From an uncultured Clostridia bacterium (lineage in GTDB: Bacteria; Bacillota; Clostridia; TANB77; CAG-508): DNA of 64,000 nucleotides. The DNA lies in assembly GCA_948739805.1 (NCBI GenBank), contig CAPYID010000004.1:1658-65657 (forward strand). Reading direction: 5' to 3'. The notes beneath the pieces were generated by a model. The model did no database searches and was not told where the DNA came from. It saw only the letters and a list, made by a program, of their open reading frames with translations. Positions 20,798 to 28,951 of this stretch are shown here, one piece after another. Each line of letters begins with the position of its first letter. Position 1 is the stretch's first letter. A program made the translations under genes and the position numbers.

Positions 20798-20833
20798 ATA
20801 AAATAAAGAGGCGATGCCTCTTTATTTTATTCT
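20798..20833 (-). terminator. Bidirectional rho-independent terminator
   Basis: Stem aaagaggc-gat-gcctcttt, flanked by an A-tract on one side and a T-tract on the other. Confidence 0.5.
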
Positions 20834-21468
20834 TCTGGTGTTCCTTCATCAATAATTCCTTTTATTGTTTCATATTGCTCTTTTACATTTTCAACACAGT
20901 GTATGTATATTCCATTTTTTCCTTGCATGTTGTTGTGTCTTCTAGTATTAGGATAACCTCCACTAGATGCATTTGTAAATATTTTTATTGTTCCTATATT
21001 AAATAATCTTTCAAATATGTTTTGATTCATTGTTACTTCTCTAACATATTTATATTTTAGTTCTTTTTCTTCTTTGTTTAAAAAACCATCTTTGTATTCT
21101 ACTTTTGTAGCATAAAAGTTATATTCTAAGTCGTCATATTGCATTTTTTCAAATGCTAGTTTTATGATGATATATAATGCCATAGCACCGATTGTTATTA
21201 AAAGTGTTATAGGATATATAGCCCATAATTCATATAAATCTGTAACCCAAAAGCATATTAATATCATATATAATATTGCTCTTCCAATAAAAGTTAACAT
21301 TTTGTATGGTATGTTAAATTTGGGTTTTACTTGAAATTTTATTTTGTTGTCCTCTTCAATTTTTTCTTTTGTTTCCTGTGCTCCTGCTCTTTCTGTTCCA
21401 CATTTAGGACAAAATTTAGCTGTATCACTTATTTCTGCTCCACAATTTTTACAAAACATAATTGCCAC
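20827..21468 (-). CDS. Zinc-ribbon / two-TM / bacterial PH (bPH_2, YdbT-like) domain membrane protein
   Basis: 213 aa. N-terminal CKNCGx11CPKCG, two hydrophobic helices, and a C-terminal YdbS/YdbT-like PH domain. Confidence 0.6.
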   Translation of the reverse strand: MAIMFCKNCGAEISDTAKFCPKCGTERAGAQETKEKIEEDNKIKFQVKPKFNIPYKMLTFIGRAILYMILICFWVTDLYELWAIYPITLLITIGAMALYIIIKLAFEKMQYDDLEYNFYATKVEYKDGFLNKEEKELKYKYVREVTMNQNIFERLFNIGTIKIFTNASSGGYPNTRRHNNMQGKNGIYIHCVENVKEQYETIKGIIDEGTPEE

Positions 21469-21473
21469 TCCTT

Positions 21474-22100
21474 TTATACATTAGTTATTTCTTTTACTTT
21501 TTTATAGATTTCTTGTACATTTTCTATATTTTTTATAAAAATGCCATTTCCAAAACCTGTTTCCGCATTAGTAAATAAGACTATATTTCCAATATTAAAG
21601 TATCTTTGGATAAATGTTTGACGCATTGTTATTTCTCTTATATATTTGTATTTTACCTCTTTTTCTGAAACATTTAAAAAGCTGTCTTTGTAAATTACTT
21701 TCGTTTTATAAAAATCATATGTATAATTTTTGTATTGCTTTTTATTAACTAATACTTGTATTCCCCAAATACTTCCAAATATTATAATTGTTATAAATGT
21801 AATTACCATACCTACTATAAAGTCTACACTTCCGAATATAAGTAATGTGATTGCAATTATAAAAATGTAAATTAATAATGATGGTAATGCCATGTATCCA
21901 AATTTGTAAGTTGGTTTTACTTGTAATTGTATTTCATTATCTACTATTTTTTTTGCTTCTTCTTTTGGTGTTTCTTTTGATTCTGAAATACGTGTACCAC
22001 AATTAGTACAGAATTCTGCTGTGTCTAGTAACTTTGTACCACATTTTTCGCAAAACATTTTATTTTCCTCCCCTTTATTTATATGTATTTTTGTATGCAT
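21474..22100 (-). CDS. Zinc-ribbon / two-TM / bPH-domain membrane protein, tandem paralogue
   Basis: 208 aa. CEKCGx11CTNCG and the same architecture as the neighbouring gene. Confidence 0.6.
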   Translation of the reverse strand: MHTKIHINKGEENKMFCEKCGTKLLDTAEFCTNCGTRISESKETPKEEAKKIVDNEIQLQVKPTYKFGYMALPSLLIYIFIIAITLLIFGSVDFIVGMVITFITIIIFGSIWGIQVLVNKKQYKNYTYDFYKTKVIYKDSFLNVSEKEVKYKYIREITMRQTFIQRYFNIGNIVLFTNAETGFGNGIFIKNIENVQEIYKKVKEITNV

Positions 22101-22306: not shown

Positions 22307-24023
<1,717 letters not shown>

Positions 24024-24040
24024 TAAGTAAATTGCTTGAA

Positions 24041-24070
24041 TGGCGGGCGATTGATAATCGCCCCTACATA
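24041..24070 (+). repeat. REP-like element, type 1, copy b (gcgggcgattgataatcgcccctacat)
   Basis: Perfect stem ggcgatt/aatcgcc plus CCCCTACAT. It lies in the groES-groEL spacer. Confidence 0.7.
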
Positions 24071-24090
24071 TATTTTTCTAATCTTATAAT

Positions 24091-24372
<282 letters not shown>

Positions 24373-24460
24373 TTAAAATTCCTCCTTTTTTATGTACCTT
24401 TTATTATATGATACAATTTTATATTTGATAATTTGGCACTCATATTTATTGACTGCTAGT

Positions 24461-24489
24461 ATAATATAACAAAAATTAGCACTTGTCAA
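24461..24489 (-). promoter_or_regulatory. Candidate sigma-A promoter of groESL, overlapping CIRCE
   Basis: Minus strand: -35 TTGACA (24489..24484), a 17-nt spacer, and -10 TATTAT (24466..24461). Confidence 0.5.
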
Positions 24490-24502
24490 TATAAAGTGCT
24501 AA
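24476..24502 (-). promoter_or_regulatory. CIRCE operator (HrcA binding site) upstream of groES
   Basis: TTAGCACTT-N9-AAGTGCTAA, compared with the consensus TTAGCACTC-N9-GAGTGCTAA. Confidence 0.75.
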
Positions 24503-24553
24503 TTTTTTTATAATTTATTTTGTTTTGTATTCCTAGACCATTACCATAACATA

Positions 24554-26530
24554 TTATCTTCCTCCTGTATCTTTTGCTGTTGCTGGTATTGAACTTTTAT
24601 GTCGGTATTCCTGTTTTTCTTCTATGTCTTCCCATGGTCTGTGCCCATTTTGCTTTTCTAAGTCTTTTTGATAACATTCAAACCTTTGCTCAAATTCCTT
24701 TTCTGGTAATCCTACAAATTTATTTGTTTCTTTGTCTGCAAAGTAAAACTTCTTGCCCACCTCTGGTAAATCTGCATATACATATAATACAGGTTCTTTA
24801 TTTTCATCATCTCTTTCATACACTCTATTTACTACACATCTATTGAAGTTTATATTACTTAATATTCCTCGTAATATACTTGCTGTTTCATTTTGGCATA
24901 TAGCAAATCCTGGGTAATATCCAGCAAGCAACATTAATTGTATTTCTACTGTTTTCTCTGCTGGAAATCCAGAAGCATCTATCATATTAGATATACTCAT
25001 AAACTTTTGTATTGGAAAATTCCCCTTTTCATCTGTCGCTCCTATACTTTTAAATATTTCTCTTACATTTCTTTTATCTAAACTTAAAGTAACACCATTT
25101 TCATTAATCTTGTGTGCTTCTGTATCTATCCCTTTTGATTCTATTTTATCATATTTTCTTATTTCTTCATAACTGTTGCAAAAGTTTTCAGGCAATCCAC
25201 CATATCTGTTAATTGATAAATTCCAAGTAGAATCTAAATATGTGTCTCCTTTAACTACTTCTCCATCTTTTTGAGGAAGTTCTATATTCTTAAGTTTTAA
25301 AAAAACATGCGTTCTATTTTTGATAACTTCAGCCTCAATTCCAATTTTGCTTAGAATGTATTTTTCAAGTTCTGATATTCCCCAACATACTCCTGTTTTT
25401 TTATTTGCTACTTTCCACATATTTTGCACTTCTTTGCTATTATATATTTCTGTATCCAGATATGGACAATAAGTTATGTTTTTACCCAATACATAATCTA
25501 CATATGCTACTCCTTGGATATTTGTCCACTCTGGATTTATTCCTTGCAATACCCAGTCAATCCACTTTTCAGCCTCTTTATATTCTTCTAGTGTAACAGT
25601 TGAAGCTCCTATATCATCTGATATTCCTATATTTGGACAAATTTCTGCTAATTCTTGAATTTTAACTCTTTCTTCATCTTTTAATTCTATTGGATTTACA
25701 TAAATTAGTTCGTCTAAGTCTTTATATATTTCTAAATCTTTGCTAAAATCAACTACAATTTTTCCATATTTAGCTCCTATCTCATGACTTAGTTTTAGTT
25801 TATATTCTGTTTCTTCTTGCGGAAAAATAGATTTGTCAAGTTTTTCTTTCTGTTTATCATCTAAAATAGTTAATATTCTCTTCTTTTCTTTATCAGTTAT
25901 GCCTCTTTTTACAAGCTCTGATACAATTTCTAATTGCACATCTTCGTTTGCTTCCATTATAATATCATAAATTGTTATACCTTTTTCATATAAAATTTTT
26001 CTGTATTCTATAAAAGTGTTTACTAATAAATCTACCTTTATACTACTAAGAATCTCTTTTATTGCTACTTTACTAAATTTACATTTTTCTTTAATTATAA
26101 TTGATATTATAGTATCTCCAGGACATGATTCTAAAATAATTCTTGTCATTTTTCTACTAATCTTATCTAAATATAAATTAATCATTTCTAATTTTATTTC
26201 ACTAGATTTTAGGCTATCAATAATTAATGTTATTACAATGCTATCTAAGTTTAATTCTTTTTCTATAAATTCTCTATCTAATAATAACTTTTGTTTATCT
26301 TCATCTCTTAATCTTATAAACAAACCTGCTATTTTCTCTCTGTTTTGTAGAATATTGCTTTTTTTAAGAAAGTCTATATTTCTTAAAATTTTCATCTCAT
26401 CTTCATATTTTAAAGATATAAGTGCTACATAAATTTCCTCAATTTCAAGTTTTGATATAAAGTCTGGATCTTTAAGCATAATTTCTAATTTTGTAGCACT
26501 ATCTGATTTCCAAAAATATTGTATATCCAT
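24554..26530 (-). CDS. Large cytoplasmic hypothetical protein with a C-terminal transglutaminase-like (Cys-His-Asp) core
   Basis: 658 aa with no signal peptide. The region GVCWGISE...RTHVFLKL...GDTYLDSTWN fits a transglutaminase-like cysteine-protease core. Good RBS GAGAGGA. Confidence 0.5.
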   Translation of the reverse strand: MDIQYFWKSDSATKLEIMLKDPDFISKLEIEEIYVALISLKYEDEMKILRNIDFLKKSNILQNREKIAGLFIRLRDEDKQKLLLDREFIEKELNLDSIVITLIIDSLKSSEIKLEMINLYLDKISRKMTRIILESCPGDTIISIIIKEKCKFSKVAIKEILSSIKVDLLVNTFIEYRKILYEKGITIYDIIMEANEDVQLEIVSELVKRGITDKEKKRILTILDDKQKEKLDKSIFPQEETEYKLKLSHEIGAKYGKIVVDFSKDLEIYKDLDELIYVNPIELKDEERVKIQELAEICPNIGISDDIGASTVTLEEYKEAEKWIDWVLQGINPEWTNIQGVAYVDYVLGKNITYCPYLDTEIYNSKEVQNMWKVANKKTGVCWGISELEKYILSKIGIEAEVIKNRTHVFLKLKNIELPQKDGEVVKGDTYLDSTWNLSINRYGGLPENFCNSYEEIRKYDKIESKGIDTEAHKINENGVTLSLDKRNVREIFKSIGATDEKGNFPIQKFMSISNMIDASGFPAEKTVEIQLMLLAGYYPGFAICQNETASILRGILSNINFNRCVVNRVYERDDENKEPVLYVYADLPEVGKKFYFADKETNKFVGLPEKEFEQRFECYQKDLEKQNGHRPWEDIEEKQEYRHKSSIPATAKDTGGR

Positions 26531-26572
26531 TTTTTCCTCTCTAGTTTATAATTGTGGTTTATTTCAATTTTT

Positions 26573-26794
26573 TTAATAATTTATTTTGTTTTGTATTCCT
26601 AGCCCATCACCATAACATATCATTGTTTCTACTTCTTTCTTCTTTGGCTTTGGTATATCTACTTTTAATGATTTGGTGAATTCTAATTTTTCTTTGCCTG
26701 TGTGTGTTTCAATAGGTGCTTGTATCATTTTATTATCACTTTTTTTGTTAAATACATTTTTCATAATTTCAAATATTTTTTTTATAAAGCTCAT
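26573..26794 (-). CDS. Small hypothetical protein (73 aa). Its last ~25 codons are homologous at the DNA level to the 3' end of the 658-aa gene.
   Basis: ORF ending ...ETMICYGDGLGIQNKINY. It lies 42 nt upstream of the 658-aa gene and is probably co-transcribed with it. Confidence 0.35.
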   Translation of the reverse strand: MSFIKKIFEIMKNVFNKKSDNKMIQAPIETHTGKEKLEFTKSLKVDIPKPKKKEVETMICYGDGLGIQNKINY

Positions 26795-26847
26795 ATTATC
26801 TTCCTCCTATGTTTTTTACGTCTAACCTCTAAGCTCTACTTTCTGGT

Positions 26848-28281
26848 TTAGTATTGCCTACCCCATACTACCATAATACTAGCATTGTCGCCACAGCATA
26901 CACATTTGTTTCCTAGTTTTTCTTGCTTAAATGGTATACATCTTGAGTGTGCTCCTGTTAGTTCTTTGATTTTGTTTTCGCATTCTTCTTTTCCACACCA
27001 CATTGTTTTTATGTATCCCTGCTTTTCTTCTATGTTTTTTACAAATTCATCTAAGTTCTCTGCTGTTGTCGTTCTTTCTTCTCTTATTTTTTTACATTCC
27101 TCATACATATTTTTTTGTATGTCTTCTAATGTTTCTTTTATTTTTTCACTTAGCTTTTCTAAGTCTACTGTTTCTTTTTCCAATGTGTCTCTTCTAACTA
27201 TAACACATACATTATTTTCTATGTCTCTTGGTCCTAGTTCTATTCTTATTGGCACTCCTCTTAGTTCCCAGTCATTAAATTTATATCCTGGTGTATAGTT
27301 TTCCCTTAAGTCTATTTCTGCTCTGAATTCTTGTTTTAATTTTTCATAAACTTCTGTTGTTTTTTCTACTACTCCTTCTTTTTTCATCATTACTGGTACT
27401 ACTACTACTTGTATTGGTGCAACTTTTGGTGGAAGCTTTAACCCACGGTTATCTCCATGCGCCATAATTGTAGCTCCTATTAATCTTGTACTTATTCCCC
27501 ATGATGTTTGATATGGATATTCGTCTTTTCCTTCTCTGTTTTGGAATTTTACATCATATGGTTTTGTAAAGTTTTGTCCAAAGTAATGTGATGTTCCTGC
27601 TTGAATGGCTCTTCCATCATGCATTAATGTTTCTACTGTGTATGTAGCTTCTGCTCCTGCAAATTTTTCTTTTTCTGTCTTTTTTCCTTTTAATACTGGT
27701 ATTGCAAGTATATTTTCTATTACTTCTGCATATATGTCTAACATTTGTAATGTTCTTTCTTCTGCTTCTTCTTTTGTTTCATGTATTGTATGTCCTTCTT
27801 GCCATAAGAATTCCCTAGAACGCAAGAATGGTCTTGTTTCTTTTTCCCATCTTAATACATTACACCATTGGTTATATACAAATGGCAAGTCTCTCCAAGA
27901 TTTTAACCATTTTGAGTATAAGTCGCAAAACATTGTTTCAGATGTTGGTCTTATGCACAATTTTTCGTCTAATTCTTTTCCTCCAGCTTCTGTAACTGTT
28001 GCTACTTCTGGTGCAAATCCTTCAACATGTTCTTTTTCTTTTTGTAATAATTTTTCTGGAATTAACACAGGAAAATATACATTTTTTACTCCATTTTTTT
28101 TGAACATTTCATCTGTGTATTTTTGTATATTTTCCCAAATTGCATATCCATATGGTTTGATTGCTATACATCCTTTTGTTCCTGTATAATCTGCTAAGTC
28201 TGCTTTTAATACTATGTCTGTATACCATTTTGCAAAGTCTTCTTCAATATTTGTTACCTCTTTTACAAATTCTTTATCCAT
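26848..28281 (-). CDS. proS: Prolyl-tRNA synthetase (archaeal/eukaryotic-like type, with a C-terminal zinc-binding domain)
   Basis: 477 aa class II aaRS. N-terminal YTDIVLKADLADYTGTKGCIAIKPYGYAIWENIQ and a C-terminal CxxC...CVCCG. Confidence 0.9.
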   Translation of the reverse strand: MDKEFVKEVTNIEEDFAKWYTDIVLKADLADYTGTKGCIAIKPYGYAIWENIQKYTDEMFKKNGVKNVYFPVLIPEKLLQKEKEHVEGFAPEVATVTEAGGKELDEKLCIRPTSETMFCDLYSKWLKSWRDLPFVYNQWCNVLRWEKETRPFLRSREFLWQEGHTIHETKEEAEERTLQMLDIYAEVIENILAIPVLKGKKTEKEKFAGAEATYTVETLMHDGRAIQAGTSHYFGQNFTKPYDVKFQNREGKDEYPYQTSWGISTRLIGATIMAHGDNRGLKLPPKVAPIQVVVVPVMMKKEGVVEKTTEVYEKLKQEFRAEIDLRENYTPGYKFNDWELRGVPIRIELGPRDIENNVCVIVRRDTLEKETVDLEKLSEKIKETLEDIQKNMYEECKKIREERTTTAENLDEFVKNIEEKQGYIKTMWCGKEECENKIKELTGAHSRCIPFKQEKLGNKCVCCGDNASIMVVWGRQY

Positions 28282-28326
28282 GTTTATTCTTCTCCTTTTA
28301 CATTATTTTTAAGAAATTTCTTCGAA

Positions 28327-28356
28327 GTGCGGGCGATTAATAATCGCCCCTGCACT
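28327..28356 (+). repeat. REP-like element, type 1, copy c (gtgcgggcgattaataatcgcccctgcac)
   Basis: Variant flank CCCCTGCAC. It lies between proS and scpB. Confidence 0.65.
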
Positions 28357-28366
28357 ATATTTTATA

Positions 28367-28951
28367 TTATTCGACATTACCTGCTTTCTCACTATTTTGG
28401 ATAATATCGTCTATTACGATTTGTTGGTTTTCGTCAATTTTGTATTTCGGCAGTTCTGGTAATTCGTCTAAACTTCTATATCCAAACATTCTTAAAAATT
28501 CATCTGTTGTTTTGTATGACATTGGTTTACCTAAAATTTCAACTTTTCCTGCTTCTTCAATCAAATTATATTCTAATAGTTTATATATCATTGCATCTGA
28601 TGATACACCTCTTATTGTTTCTATTTCTGCTCTTGTTATTTTAGGATTATATGCTATTATAGCTAAGACTTCTAGTGCTGCTTGCGAAAGTTTGGGCTTA
28701 ATTCTTTTATCAATTATAGGATTAATGTATTCATAATATTCTTTTTTAGTACACATTTGATATCCATCATTCACTCTAATAATTTCTATCCCTCTTGATA
28801 TGTCTTTATATTCTTTGTTCATATCATTAATTAGTTCTATTATATCTTTTTCATTAATTTCTACAACTAGTTCCAATTCTTTTATTTTTACAACTCTTCC
28901 TGCACAAAATAATATAGCTTCTATTATTCCTCTTATTTTGTCTATTTCCAT
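28367..28951 (-). CDS. scpB: Segregation and condensation protein B
   Basis: 194 aa. IEAILFCAGRVVKIKEL... tandem winged-helix ScpB pattern. Confidence 0.85.
   Translation of the reverse strand: MEIDKIRGIIEAILFCAGRVVKIKELELVVEINEKDIIELINDMNKEYKDISRGIEIIRVNDGYQMCTKKEYYEYINPIIDKRIKPKLSQAALEVLAIIAYNPKITRAEIETIRGVSSDAMIYKLLEYNLIEEAGKVEILGKPMSYKTTDEFLRMFGYRSLDELPELPKYKIDENQQIVIDDIIQNSEKAGNVE

Follow-up and report, generated by a model that had tools for sequence, protein, structure and literature searches.

Change of gene order by tandem duplication-random loss (TDRL) is best known from animal mitochondrial genomes. The locus described here, which lies in the 64-kb stretch of DNA that we analysed (the window), resembles those cases: a block would have been duplicated and each gene then lost from one of the copies, leaving relics at the predicted places, here seven codons of one big gene and the Shine-Dalgarno sequence (SD), ATG and tail of one small gene. 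It differs from them in that the setting is a bacterial chromosome and the unit a two-gene module. We regard the finding itself as an ordinary evolutionary scar. Recognizing it averts three wrong annotations, those of a truncated enzyme, a recoded gene and a RiPP precursor sharing its tail with a protease, and it offers what appears to be a clean bacterial case of gene-order change by duplication and reciprocal loss in which both relics can still be read.

The big gene of the module encodes a transglutaminase-like protein of 658 aa, and the small gene a protein of 73 aa. A comparable pairing is that of vasohibin and SVBP, a eukaryotic transglutaminase-like tubulin carboxypeptidase with an obligate partner of 66 aa; neither has sequence similarity to the proteins of the window. 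SVBP is a single long helix, whereas the conserved part of the window's partner is an extended C-terminal motif, and any likeness would be functional only. LapG (PDB 4FGO), one of the bacterial transglutaminase-like cysteine proteinases, is a small calcium-dependent protease of the periplasm whose substrate is the adhesin LapA. Unlike LapG, the window enzyme is devoid of a signal peptide or membrane segment, contains long helical-repeat and C-terminal domains, and comes together with a small partner protein. The transglutaminase-like domain-containing protein TglA of S. pyogenes (PDB 9CRN) has 361 aa as against 658 and is only 14% identical, which gives no link at the sequence level, and a literature search on TglA and 9CRN returned nothing relevant.

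Direct repeats and the end of the enzyme gene

The features of the locus are as follows (L numbers denote loci of relatives).

24433..24507, minus strand: groES control region, directly past the relic (promoter scan, inverted repeat I3)
24503..24552, minus strand: probable relic of the ancestral downstream small gene (repeat D3, translations, blastn gap, tblastn)
24550..24575, minus strand: repeat R1 copy B, comprising the end of the big gene, a T and the ATG of the presumably dead small gene (repeat D7, translation PATAKDTGGR-stop)
24554..26530, minus strand: big gene, type I, 658 aa (translation, homologues, structure model)
26531..26565, minus strand: junction segment and big-gene ribosome-binding site (aligned locally with L011 3900-4012 and L007 2920-3028)
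26566..26623, minus strand: repeat R2 copy A, comprising the last 16 codons of orf73, its stop and the AAAAAAATT microhomology (repeat D3; blastn end points 26566-26569)
26573..26794, minus strand: orf73, the intact small partner gene, here upstream of the big gene (ORF list, homologues)
26792..26817, minus strand: repeat R1 copy A, AAAAAACATAGGAGGAAGATAAT+ATG (repeat D7, repeat search)
26818..26847, minus strand: probable remnant of the type-II intergenic region between proS and the module (alignment to L096, L099 and L091)

A repeat search pairs 24503-24557 with 26569-26623 (D3, 55 nt, 93% identity, no gaps), and a 27-nt core pattern occurs exactly twice in the 64 kb against 0.00 expected from shuffles. 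The near-identical stretches of about 55 bp that an earlier, sequence-only reading had picked out are thus real, as are the C-terminus that it gave for the 73-aa ORF (...MICYGDGLGIQNKINY, then stop) and the copy past the 658-aa gene in a different frame, which translates as KIICYGNGLGIQNKINY. Two details of that reading change. The repeat itself contains no 2-nt indel; the offset between the frames reflects a deletion of 176 nt relative to an intact small gene, and it amounts to two nucleotides because 176 mod 3 is 2. The weaker similarity said to extend about 25 bp upstream was aligned with the purine-rich interior of the ORF, an alignment that MAFFT reproduces at roughly 57% identity by our own count, but homology to the interior is not borne out. 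What lies there is an additional repeat (D7, 24550-24575 against 26792-26817, 88% identity) that consists of the SD and ATG of the 73-aa ORF, recurring where the 658-aa gene ends. One copy provides the SD and start of orf73, and the other, at 24550-24575, also supplies the last codons of the big gene, among which GGA GGA AGA TAA is the small gene's ancestral SD. Rfam gave zero matches over 24000-28800 at E<=1, so the repeat does not correspond to a known RNA.

Relatives show what these pieces belong to. The order proS-big-small-groES is found in L007-L012, L091-L101 and L095, with the small ATG 1 nt past the big stop, and big-then-small is the order at nearly all loci with downstream sequence among 80 GTDB species loci (gut Clostridia MAGs); a few, which stop at the end of a contig or whose small ORF is truncated, show no small gene downstream. 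The small genes at these ~80 loci encode 68-108 aa, mostly 72-74, and either overlap the big gene or follow it at a spacing of 1-88 nt. The big gene and the 73-aa gene are a conserved two-gene module, in which, among relatives, the last codons of the big gene contain the SD of the small one. The window lineage is derived, with an intact small gene upstream and a degenerate copy downstream.

The degenerate copy joins an ATG, out of frame, to the last 16 codons of a small gene, with 176 nt of internal sequence gone; blastn shows the interior to be missing relative to L007, L095, L011 and L091, and tblastn recovers 68% over 22 aa at 24575-24510. From its own ATG it reads ATG TTA TGG TAA (MLW-stop). 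In the tail frame the stop codon is lost and translation would run through as KKISTLY-stop, and the near-invariant GDG has undergone a D to N change at a position where 74/75 natural sequences keep D. Decay cannot reach the left part of the copy, because the big gene uses it for its own last codons. Directly beyond lies the groES control region, with a promoter at 24489-24461 (TTGACA-17-TATTAT, 11/12 matches in the promoter scan) and two inverted repeats, 24471-24507 and 24433-24459, which we take to be CIRCE-like from the consensus TTAGCACTC-N9-GAGTGCTAA. We conclude with considerable confidence that the shared 3' end is what is left of a dead small partner gene, an evolutionary scar with no coding role.

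Origin of the small-big order

In blastn comparisons the locus looks like a mosaic. Positions 28299-26818 are contiguous with L091, 26817-26566 correspond to the end of the big gene plus the small gene of relatives, 26540-24550 to their big gene, and 24557-24050 to the small-gene tail and groES with the small-gene interior missing. Big genes of two types, I and II, share 54% amino acid identity. The big gene of the window matches type I at 93.7/90.9% identity and type II at about 74%; for the upstream copy the identities are 94.0/93.7% with type-II loci and 89.3-90.5% with type I. The intergenic stretch up to the left deletion junction, which falls directly past ...GGTTAGAC(AAT)GTA, is near-identical to type II, with 1-3 mismatches. 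R1 copy A reads KNIGGR-stop, apparently the last seven codons of a deleted type-II big gene, and its 33-nt local alignment to the big-gene 3' ends of L096 and L099 has one mismatch. On the other side of the small gene, segment 26531..26565 is a shortened form of the type-I region upstream of the big gene; over 25 nt its alignment to such regions needs gaps, and L011 likewise has AAAAAAATT at the equivalent position before its big gene. The type assignment of the 252-nt copy (15 against 24-27 mismatches, and a 22-nt flank) is suggestive rather than decisive, and the relic itself is untypeable.

These observations are well accommodated by a history in which two big-small modules once stood in tandem and the window lineage kept the wreck of both. 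The left module, of type II as in L091, L096 and L099, would have lost its big gene from just upstream of the ribosome-binding site to the last seven codons, while its small gene survived with SD and ATG as the 73-aa ORF. The right module, of type I as in L095 and L007, would have kept its big gene and lost 176 internal nt of its small gene between two imperfect purine-rich repeats ending in ATATG, so that SD and ATG came to adjoin the last ~50 nt out of frame. The modules may have been joined at the 9-nt AAAAAAATT, which follows the small gene and also stands ~55 nt before type-I big genes, either by unequal crossing-over or by homology-facilitated illegitimate recombination anchored in groES. 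In sum, tandem duplication and reciprocal loss would have turned the order big-small into small-big. Since the two copies seem to be divergent alleles, the duplication may stem from recombination with another strain's DNA instead of having occurred inside a single genome, a further difference from TDRL.

Relics of both lost copies stand at the places that this history predicts, and the ancestral order is present in outgroups. Other species do have tandem arrangements: L047 has big-small-big-small, and L083 and L035 have big-small-big. A full bigII-small-bigI-small tandem was not found in any genome of the window's genus. Overall, we think it very probable that a partner gene was relocated through tandem modules, reciprocal loss and an order swap. 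The repeats, the ancestral gene order, the limits of the deletions, the decayed state of the relic and its recurrence across independent assemblies are observed directly, with the tandem intermediate, the order of events and the mixed type-II and type-I ancestry as the inferred parts of this history.

A simpler course would start from a type-I locus that never had a second big gene: a 252-nt cassette, comprising the small gene and its SD, would have been copied from the downstream to the upstream side, and the original would then have decayed. This would save one event, and the copied unit would be exactly SD, gene and 9 nt. We nevertheless consider it unlikely, as the stretch from proS to the copy is type-II intergenic sequence and not the repeat array of the type-I proS tail, the seven codons before the copy are the type-II KNIGGR-stop and not the locus's own KDTGGR-stop, and the copy is nearer to type-II small genes.

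Very improbable, in our judgement, is a mobile cassette carrying the big gene, with the repeats as attL/attR-like or target-site duplications. The direct repeats do surround a 2-kb segment and the contexts of the module do differ among species, but between the repeats the big gene stands alone, without a recombinase or transposase, and in repeat-free relatives the same proS-groES slot is occupied by the big gene. Moreover, the two repeats match at 93% and 88% identity and are pieces of a single gene that an internal deletion has drawn together, and searches for phage or PHROG matches gave none.

The sequence-only reading had offered three explanations of its own. According to the first, the 658-aa gene lost a C-terminal CYGxGLGIQNKINY tail by frameshift, a copy of which the 73-aa ORF preserves. 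Tail-like sequence indeed lies right past the stop in another frame, yet this explanation is refuted to the point of being scarcely credible: 20 database and ~70 MAG-encoded big homologues, all that were examined, end at the same position (...SSGxxxxxxxER), and among them we looked in vain for any protein ending in a CYGxGLGIQ tail. In relatives the tail is part of a separate gene starting 1 nt past the stop, and the AF2 model renders the last 20 residues of the big protein as a disordered end.

Equally hard to credit is a programmed frameshift or other recoding event at the end of the 658-aa gene that appends the tail (IICYGNGLGIQNKINYKKISTLY) in this strain. Between AAG (24560) and TGA the tail frame offers 25 open codons, and apparently genuine +1 recoding exists elsewhere in the family. 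The resulting peptide would, however, have N for the D of 74/75 natural sequences and a non-native KKISTLY that upsets the constant distance of 6 residues to the C-terminus; no CGG or other conserved shift site exists where the 658-aa gene ends, the candidate recoding site of the family being ~100 nt further upstream and absent from the window's gene; and an intact small gene exists anyway. The suggestion that the frameshift is used thus finds no support, given that the tail belongs in orthologues to a separate gene with its own SD and ATG and that the local copy is degenerate.

The third explanation, that the 73-aa ORF is a duplicated 3' fragment, has its polarity reversed: the ORF is intact, and the fragment is the piece past the 658-aa gene. 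The ORF was to count as a degenerate duplicate if orthologues of the big protein ended without the tail and the ORF had no conserved homologues; the orthologues do end so, but the small-gene family comprises 567 database clusters in a profile search and occurs in ~80 species.

Repeats of 26-55 nt can mislead short-read assemblers, but we give practically no weight to an assembly or sequencing artefact, because seven assemblies share the scar, namely the window and six contigs from other samples and two assemblers' collections (ENA, Logan) that have an identical scar and the upstream copy, are 99.65-99.69% identical to the window over 4.25 kb and differ from it at 13-15 other positions.

The enzyme and its small partner

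The lasting value of the locus lies in a pairing of enzyme and small partner, without a Pfam, NCBIfam, PADLOC or PHROG match, in ~80 species-level genomes of gut Clostridia. The big-gene family has 441 enzyme representatives at 50% identity. The 658-aa protein opens with helical repeats at its N-terminus, followed by a Cys-His-Asp core of the transglutaminase fold, one helical domain, one beta domain and the disordered tail. Homologues share C382 and H408 without exception, and conservation of D433 is at least 90%. In the AF2 model a helix begins at 382 and strands at 409-419 and 425-432 are followed by D433, so that the conserved Cys starts a helix and His and Asp lie on the strands that come next. 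The core fold is shared with solved transglutaminase-like members. The Cys-His-Asp core agrees with what had been read from the sequence, and so does the absence of a signal peptide; neither this protein nor orf73 has a signal peptide, transmembrane segment or hydrophobic N-terminus.

Profile matches are faint. PF01841 (Transglut_core) scores 12 bits against the 658-aa protein (E=0.26), below the cut-off of 23, and this is all that Pfam and NCBIfam returned for the two proteins; among 21 homologues, 9 match PF01841 at E<0.1, the best at 2.3e-4. Searches of the PDB with the 658-aa protein, the family profile and a ~420-aa subfamily profile found nothing significant, and Foldseek against the PDB gave matches at E>0.03 only, mostly helical repeats and menin. 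As to anti-phage defence and phage families, the module had no match in PADLOC, PHROGs or a tblastn search of 50,697 phage records, and a literature search gave no lead on it. Its genomic context varies between species. Neighbourhood clustering of the 80 loci found no conserved third gene, with non-partner ORF clusters of at least 90 aa common to at most 5 loci, and a functional linkage to groES or proS was rejected, being confined to this genus.

The close homologues of orf73 (n=9) are every one 73 aa long. The best-conserved portion of the small protein is its C-terminal 20 residues, where G, D, G, L, G, I and C are nearly invariant, and the middle is variable. The motif E-T-[LPM]-x-C-x-G-D-G-L-G-I-[QK] ends 6 residues from the C-terminus. 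The N-terminus forms a predicted amphipathic helix (hydrophobic moment 0.66, p=0.006), and the structure model has helices at 3-16 and 33-43 with the remainder extended. Q68 was set aside as a transglutaminase acyl donor, as 13/75 sequences have K, N, R or S instead.

Transglutaminase-like proteases had suggested RiPP processing to the earlier reader. A short gene does adjoin the enzyme gene in ~80 species, and a small co-transcribed partner was rightly thought worth a look. The RiPP framing itself is not supported: in place of a conserved leader and a variable core, the C-terminal 20 residues are the most conserved, and no co-located tailoring, transporter or immunity genes recur across the 80 loci.

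We infer that the enzyme is a cytoplasmic protein of the Cys-His-Asp transglutaminase fold and that its most likely role is to bind or process the partner's extended C-terminal segment, C-x-GDGLGI, which lies at a fixed distance from the C-terminus. More broadly, and at somewhat less than even odds, the module may be a previously undescribed two-component system of gut Clostridia in which a ~74-aa partner, through its C-x-G-D-G-L-G-I segment, is either the target of the enzyme or what completes it, and in which about a quarter of the species need a programmed +1 frameshift at CGG for a full-length enzyme.

A candidate frameshift site in other species

In 20 other species the big gene contains a candidate +1 programmed frameshift at the very rare codon CGG, which in L037 and L080 stands in AAA-CGG-ACT-TAG. 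Few conserved chromosomal +1 recoding sites are known in bacteria. Programmed +1 frameshifting at a slow A-site codon occurs in prfB (RF2) and Ty3. A slow A-site codon is likewise involved in the +1 frameshift of influenza PA-X, at UCC_UUU_CGU (PMC3498833). The candidate sites differ from those of prfB, Ty3 and PA-X in having no conserved slippery P-site codon or upstream SD-like stimulator. The shift site is absent from the window's gene, and the 64-kb window holds no tRNA genes. If the tentative two-component reading holds, the shift might also bring ribosomes to the overlapping ATGA start of the partner. At each site a single extra nucleotide makes a frame-0 CGG exactly where the frame must move +1, and the candidate is sharply defined, at a near-unassigned codon used 0.25 times per 1000 codons in these genomes.

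Gene order and repeats behind the large gene

All genes around the repeat site lie on the minus strand, in the following order.

26848-28281 (-), proS, first in order
26573-26794 (-), 73-aa ORF (the small gene), after proS
24554-26530 (-), 658-aa ORF (the big gene), after the 73-aa ORF
24489-24461 (-), sigma-A-type promoter TTGACA-17-TATTAT with two CIRCE-like inverted repeats, between the 658-aa ORF and groES
24091-24372 (-), groES, after the promoter
22307-23938 (-), groEL, after groES

A direct-repeat search recovered the similarity that the sequence-only reading had noticed between the 3’ ends of the 658-aa gene and the 73-aa ORF. The two copies of this repeat, D3 (24503-24557 and 26569-26623), are 93% identical over 55 nt with no gaps, and a 27-nt core of theirs has exactly two occurrences in the window, where shuffles give an expectation of 0.00. 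The copy 3’ of the big gene translates as KIICYGNGLGIQNKINYKKISTLY*, as had been read, except that N replaces the D of the GDG motif and the stop codon is gone. A second direct repeat, D7, which the sequence-only reading had missed, pairs ACAGGAGGAAGATAATATG (24550-24575), at the extreme end of the 658-aa gene, with ATAGGAGGAAGATAATATG (26792-26817), before the 73-aa ORF, where it constitutes the Shine-Dalgarno (SD) sequence and start codon of that ORF. Together, D3 and D7 therefore show that 3’ of the big gene the SD and ATG of the small gene are joined directly to the small gene’s last ~50 nt. The D3 copies differ in frame because this relic has a 176-nt internal deletion (176 mod 3 = 2); the 2-nt indel proposed earlier is absent. 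Weaker similarity reported further upstream proved to be false homology by synteny, as MAFFT aligns two purine-rich stretches, one from the big-gene end and one from the ORF interior.

An identical scar and upstream copy recur in six contigs from other samples (99.65-99.69% identity to the window across 4.25 kb), which rules out an error of sequencing or assembly. Insertion of a mobile element was rejected as the source of the repeats, as the segment between them holds the resident big gene only. The left part of the relic is unable to decay because it encodes the big protein’s last residues, and the last dozen bases of its right part overlap a CIRCE arm and the stretch just upstream of the groES -35 hexamer; the remaining relic sequence has simply not been eroded so far. 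The two CIRCE-like inverted repeats bracket the groES promoter (24433-24507), one overlapping the -35 (TTAGCACTT-N9-AAGTGCTAA) and the other 3’ of the -10 (CTAGCAGTC-N9-GAGTGCCAA).

Ancestral order and a proposed mosaic history of the locus

In all contigs carrying close homologues, the order is proS - big - small - groES, with the big stop codon 1 nt from the small ATG (GGA GGA AGA TAA T ATG). Scanning the GTDB species representatives yielded 121 stretches that encode relatives; 80 loci were retained, all from MAGs of uncultured gut Clostridia. In nearly all 80, the ORF 3’ of the big gene is small (68-108 aa, mostly 72-74) and shares the architecture of the 73-aa ORF; its start overlaps the big stop by 4 nt (ATGA) or lies up to 88 nt downstream. 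The order big then small, nearly universal across relatives, is therefore ancestral, and the window lineage is the exception. The earlier suggestion that the 73-aa ORF is a duplicated fragment was thus right in kind and reversed in direction. Loss of a C-terminal tail by the big gene is rejected: a word-indexed search found only 20 non-identical homologues, which all stop at the same place (...SSGxxxxxxxER), with the tail in none. Use of a frameshift in the window fails as well, as the relic reads MLW* from its own ATG and its tail carries the D-to-N change without a stop. The 73-aa ORF has nine close homologues, each of 73 aa, with ICYGDGLGIQ invariant.

Comparison with relatives by blastn divides the window into four blocks.

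Blocks of the window, by blastn
Block 1: proS and 30 nt of intergenic DNA
Block 2, 26817-26566: last ~22 nt of a big gene, the small gene and AAAAAAATT
Block 3, 26540-24550: the big gene
Block 4, 24557-24050: small-gene tail and groES, small-gene interior absent

The genus has two locus types. Type I (loci L095, L007 and L011 from related genomes) has tandem copies of the proS 3’ end in front of a big gene of 658-660 aa, and type II (L091, L096, L099) has a big gene of 515-518 aa, whose protein lacks the first ~150 residues and is only 54% identical to that of the window. The window’s big gene is type I, with 93.7% nucleotide identity to L095 versus about 74% to type II. All window sequence left of it is suggestive of type II. 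The proS-small intergenic stretch nearly matches L096/L099 (1-3 mismatches) up to ...GGTTAGAC; the seven codons before the small gene are the type-II KNIGGR*, versus the strain’s own KDTGGR*; and the small gene shares 94% identity with type II, as opposed to 89-90.5% with type I. Homology right of the upstream copy stops in AAAAAAATT, a 9-mer that recurs in L011, ~55 nt before its type-I big gene.

The simplest history would involve three steps, wherein a type-II and a type-I module (big plus small gene) came to lie in tandem with a junction at AAAAAAATT, the type-II big gene was deleted, and a stretch of 176 nt between two imperfect repeats ending in ATATG dropped out of the type-I small gene. 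The junction could have arisen by unequal crossing-over or by groES-anchored homology-facilitated illegitimate recombination. We infer both the mosaic origin and the order of events from short segments. Tandem modules, the intermediate required by this history, occur in other species. The arrangement is big-small-big-small in L047 (1865-6371) and big-small-big in L083 (3785-8251), where the second big gene lacks a small gene, and in L035 (1082-5812), where it lies at the contig end.

Strains whose big proteins are 54% identical and differ by ~150 N-terminal residues (24554-26530 vs L096 2443-3999; L091, L099) are otherwise close, with proS and groES 92-95% identical, and the last ~140 residues of the divergent alleles are far more similar than the remainder. 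The big-gene locus thus looks hypervariable or mosaic. The type-I proS-to-big intergenic region is a tandem array (L011 3591-3877; L007 2560-2910; L095 80-290), which in L011 consists of 3.3 copies of an 86-nt unit with 95% matches. The last ~30 nt of proS and a hairpin, AAAATTTGC-GAA-GCAAATTTT, are present in every unit. With this array, which the window lacks, the locus offers a second instance in which gene 3’ ends are duplicated. Big genes split beside an intact small gene in L095 (294-2272, 411+213 aa) and L091 (2452-3999, 38+452 aa) may reflect pseudogenisation or further recoding.

A putative enzyme and its small partner

The enzyme family numbers 441 representatives at 50% identity among 1.84 billion proteins, and its transglutaminase-like relationship is barely detected by sequence methods alone. 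The structure model of the big protein (pLDDT 85.9, pTM 0.76) opens with helical repeats over ~230 residues; a small linker domain leads into an alpha/beta core, after which come helical and beta domains and, last, a disordered 20-residue tail. In the homologue alignment C382 and H408 are invariant and D433 nearly so; the model places them at a helix N-terminus and on the next two strands. The conserved C-terminal GGR or EEGEER is best explained as the small gene’s SD embedded in coding sequence. One 681-aa homologue (P0004) has a 45-residue insertion (alignment A2 columns 401-445) that looks like an internal duplication of the adjacent segment, …DFNRNLEIYRGLD… resembling …DFNKDLEIYRGLD….

The small protein has no globular fold (model pTM 0.23). 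Its N-terminus forms an amphipathic helix (hydrophobic moment 0.66, p=0.006); in the model another, short helix follows, and the C-terminal part is extended. The motif E-T-[LPM]-x-C-x-G-D-G-L-G-I-[QK]-x-K-[ILVM] has its C in 73/75 sequences and its three G in 75/75. Total length ranges from 61 to 119 aa across the 75 distinct sequences (loci L011-L101), yet in 74 of them exactly 6 residues separate the end of GDGLGI from the C-terminus, a spacing that is strongly constrained. A small-protein profile matched 567 database clusters, all ‘hypothetical’ or unnamed and without Pfam domains.

Neither protein has a membrane segment, the neighbourhoods of the 80 loci held no conserved third gene, and searches for defence, phage and RNA families gave no match. 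Linkage of the module to proS/groES is confined to this genus. We conclude that the two genes encode a dedicated enzyme-partner pair, in which the partner’s extended C-terminal segment is the most likely ligand of the putative active site. The partner may be cleaved, be cross-linked or serve as a subunit; SVBP, which acts as a subunit for vasohibin, is a candidate analogue of the last role. The proposed RiPP pathway finds support neither in the conservation pattern nor in the neighbourhood.

A candidate +1 frameshift in other species

In 20 species loci (L025, L029, L031, L037, L041, L044, L052-L057, L061, L062, L077, L080, L082, L085, L088, L089), the conserved C-terminus of the big gene can be reached only by a +1 shift, for example at about 5690-5760 in L037. 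FECY and PW are separated by 46 nt in 20/20 shift loci versus 45 nt in nearly all in-frame loci. The extra base is a C in every shift locus, directly 5’ of an invariant Gly codon, and so creates a frame-0 CGG. These genomes hardly use this codon, which occurs at 0.25 per 1000 codons in non-shift loci and once in 16,498 codons in the window; 20 of the 29 CGG codons in shift loci are at the shift site. Read in frame 0, the codon 5’ of CGG gives residues like those of the family (K, N, E, G); the +1-frame codon there gives N, S, I or V, which places the shift at X|C|GGA. In the 19/20 loci parsed, the +1 continuation is 32 codons long and its terminal TGA overlaps the small gene’s ATG. With 31% synonymous differences, against 14% and 18% for the two alternative frames, this continuation shows coding selection. 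The shift loci are down to 52% identical to one another and do not form a single clade in a rough NJ tree. The site is a candidate for programmed +1 frameshifting at a hungry codon, with logic comparable to that of prfB, Ty3 or influenza PA-X (PMC3498833). The window’s big gene lacks the shift site.

Elsewhere in the window (28.6% G+C), three copies of a G+C-rich palindrome of 19 nt, GGGCGATTRATAATCGCCC, lie at 24045-24063, 28331-28349 and 40525-40543, against a chance expectation of 0. Two of them, in the groES-groEL and scpB-proS intergenic regions, have about 64 nt of similar flanks in common; the palindrome looks like a REP-like or terminator-like repeat element. Adjacent paralogues of 213 and 208 aa (20827-21468 and 21474-22100) both start with a zinc-ribbon CxxC...CxxC; in identical contigs, both are annotated with a bPH_2 domain.
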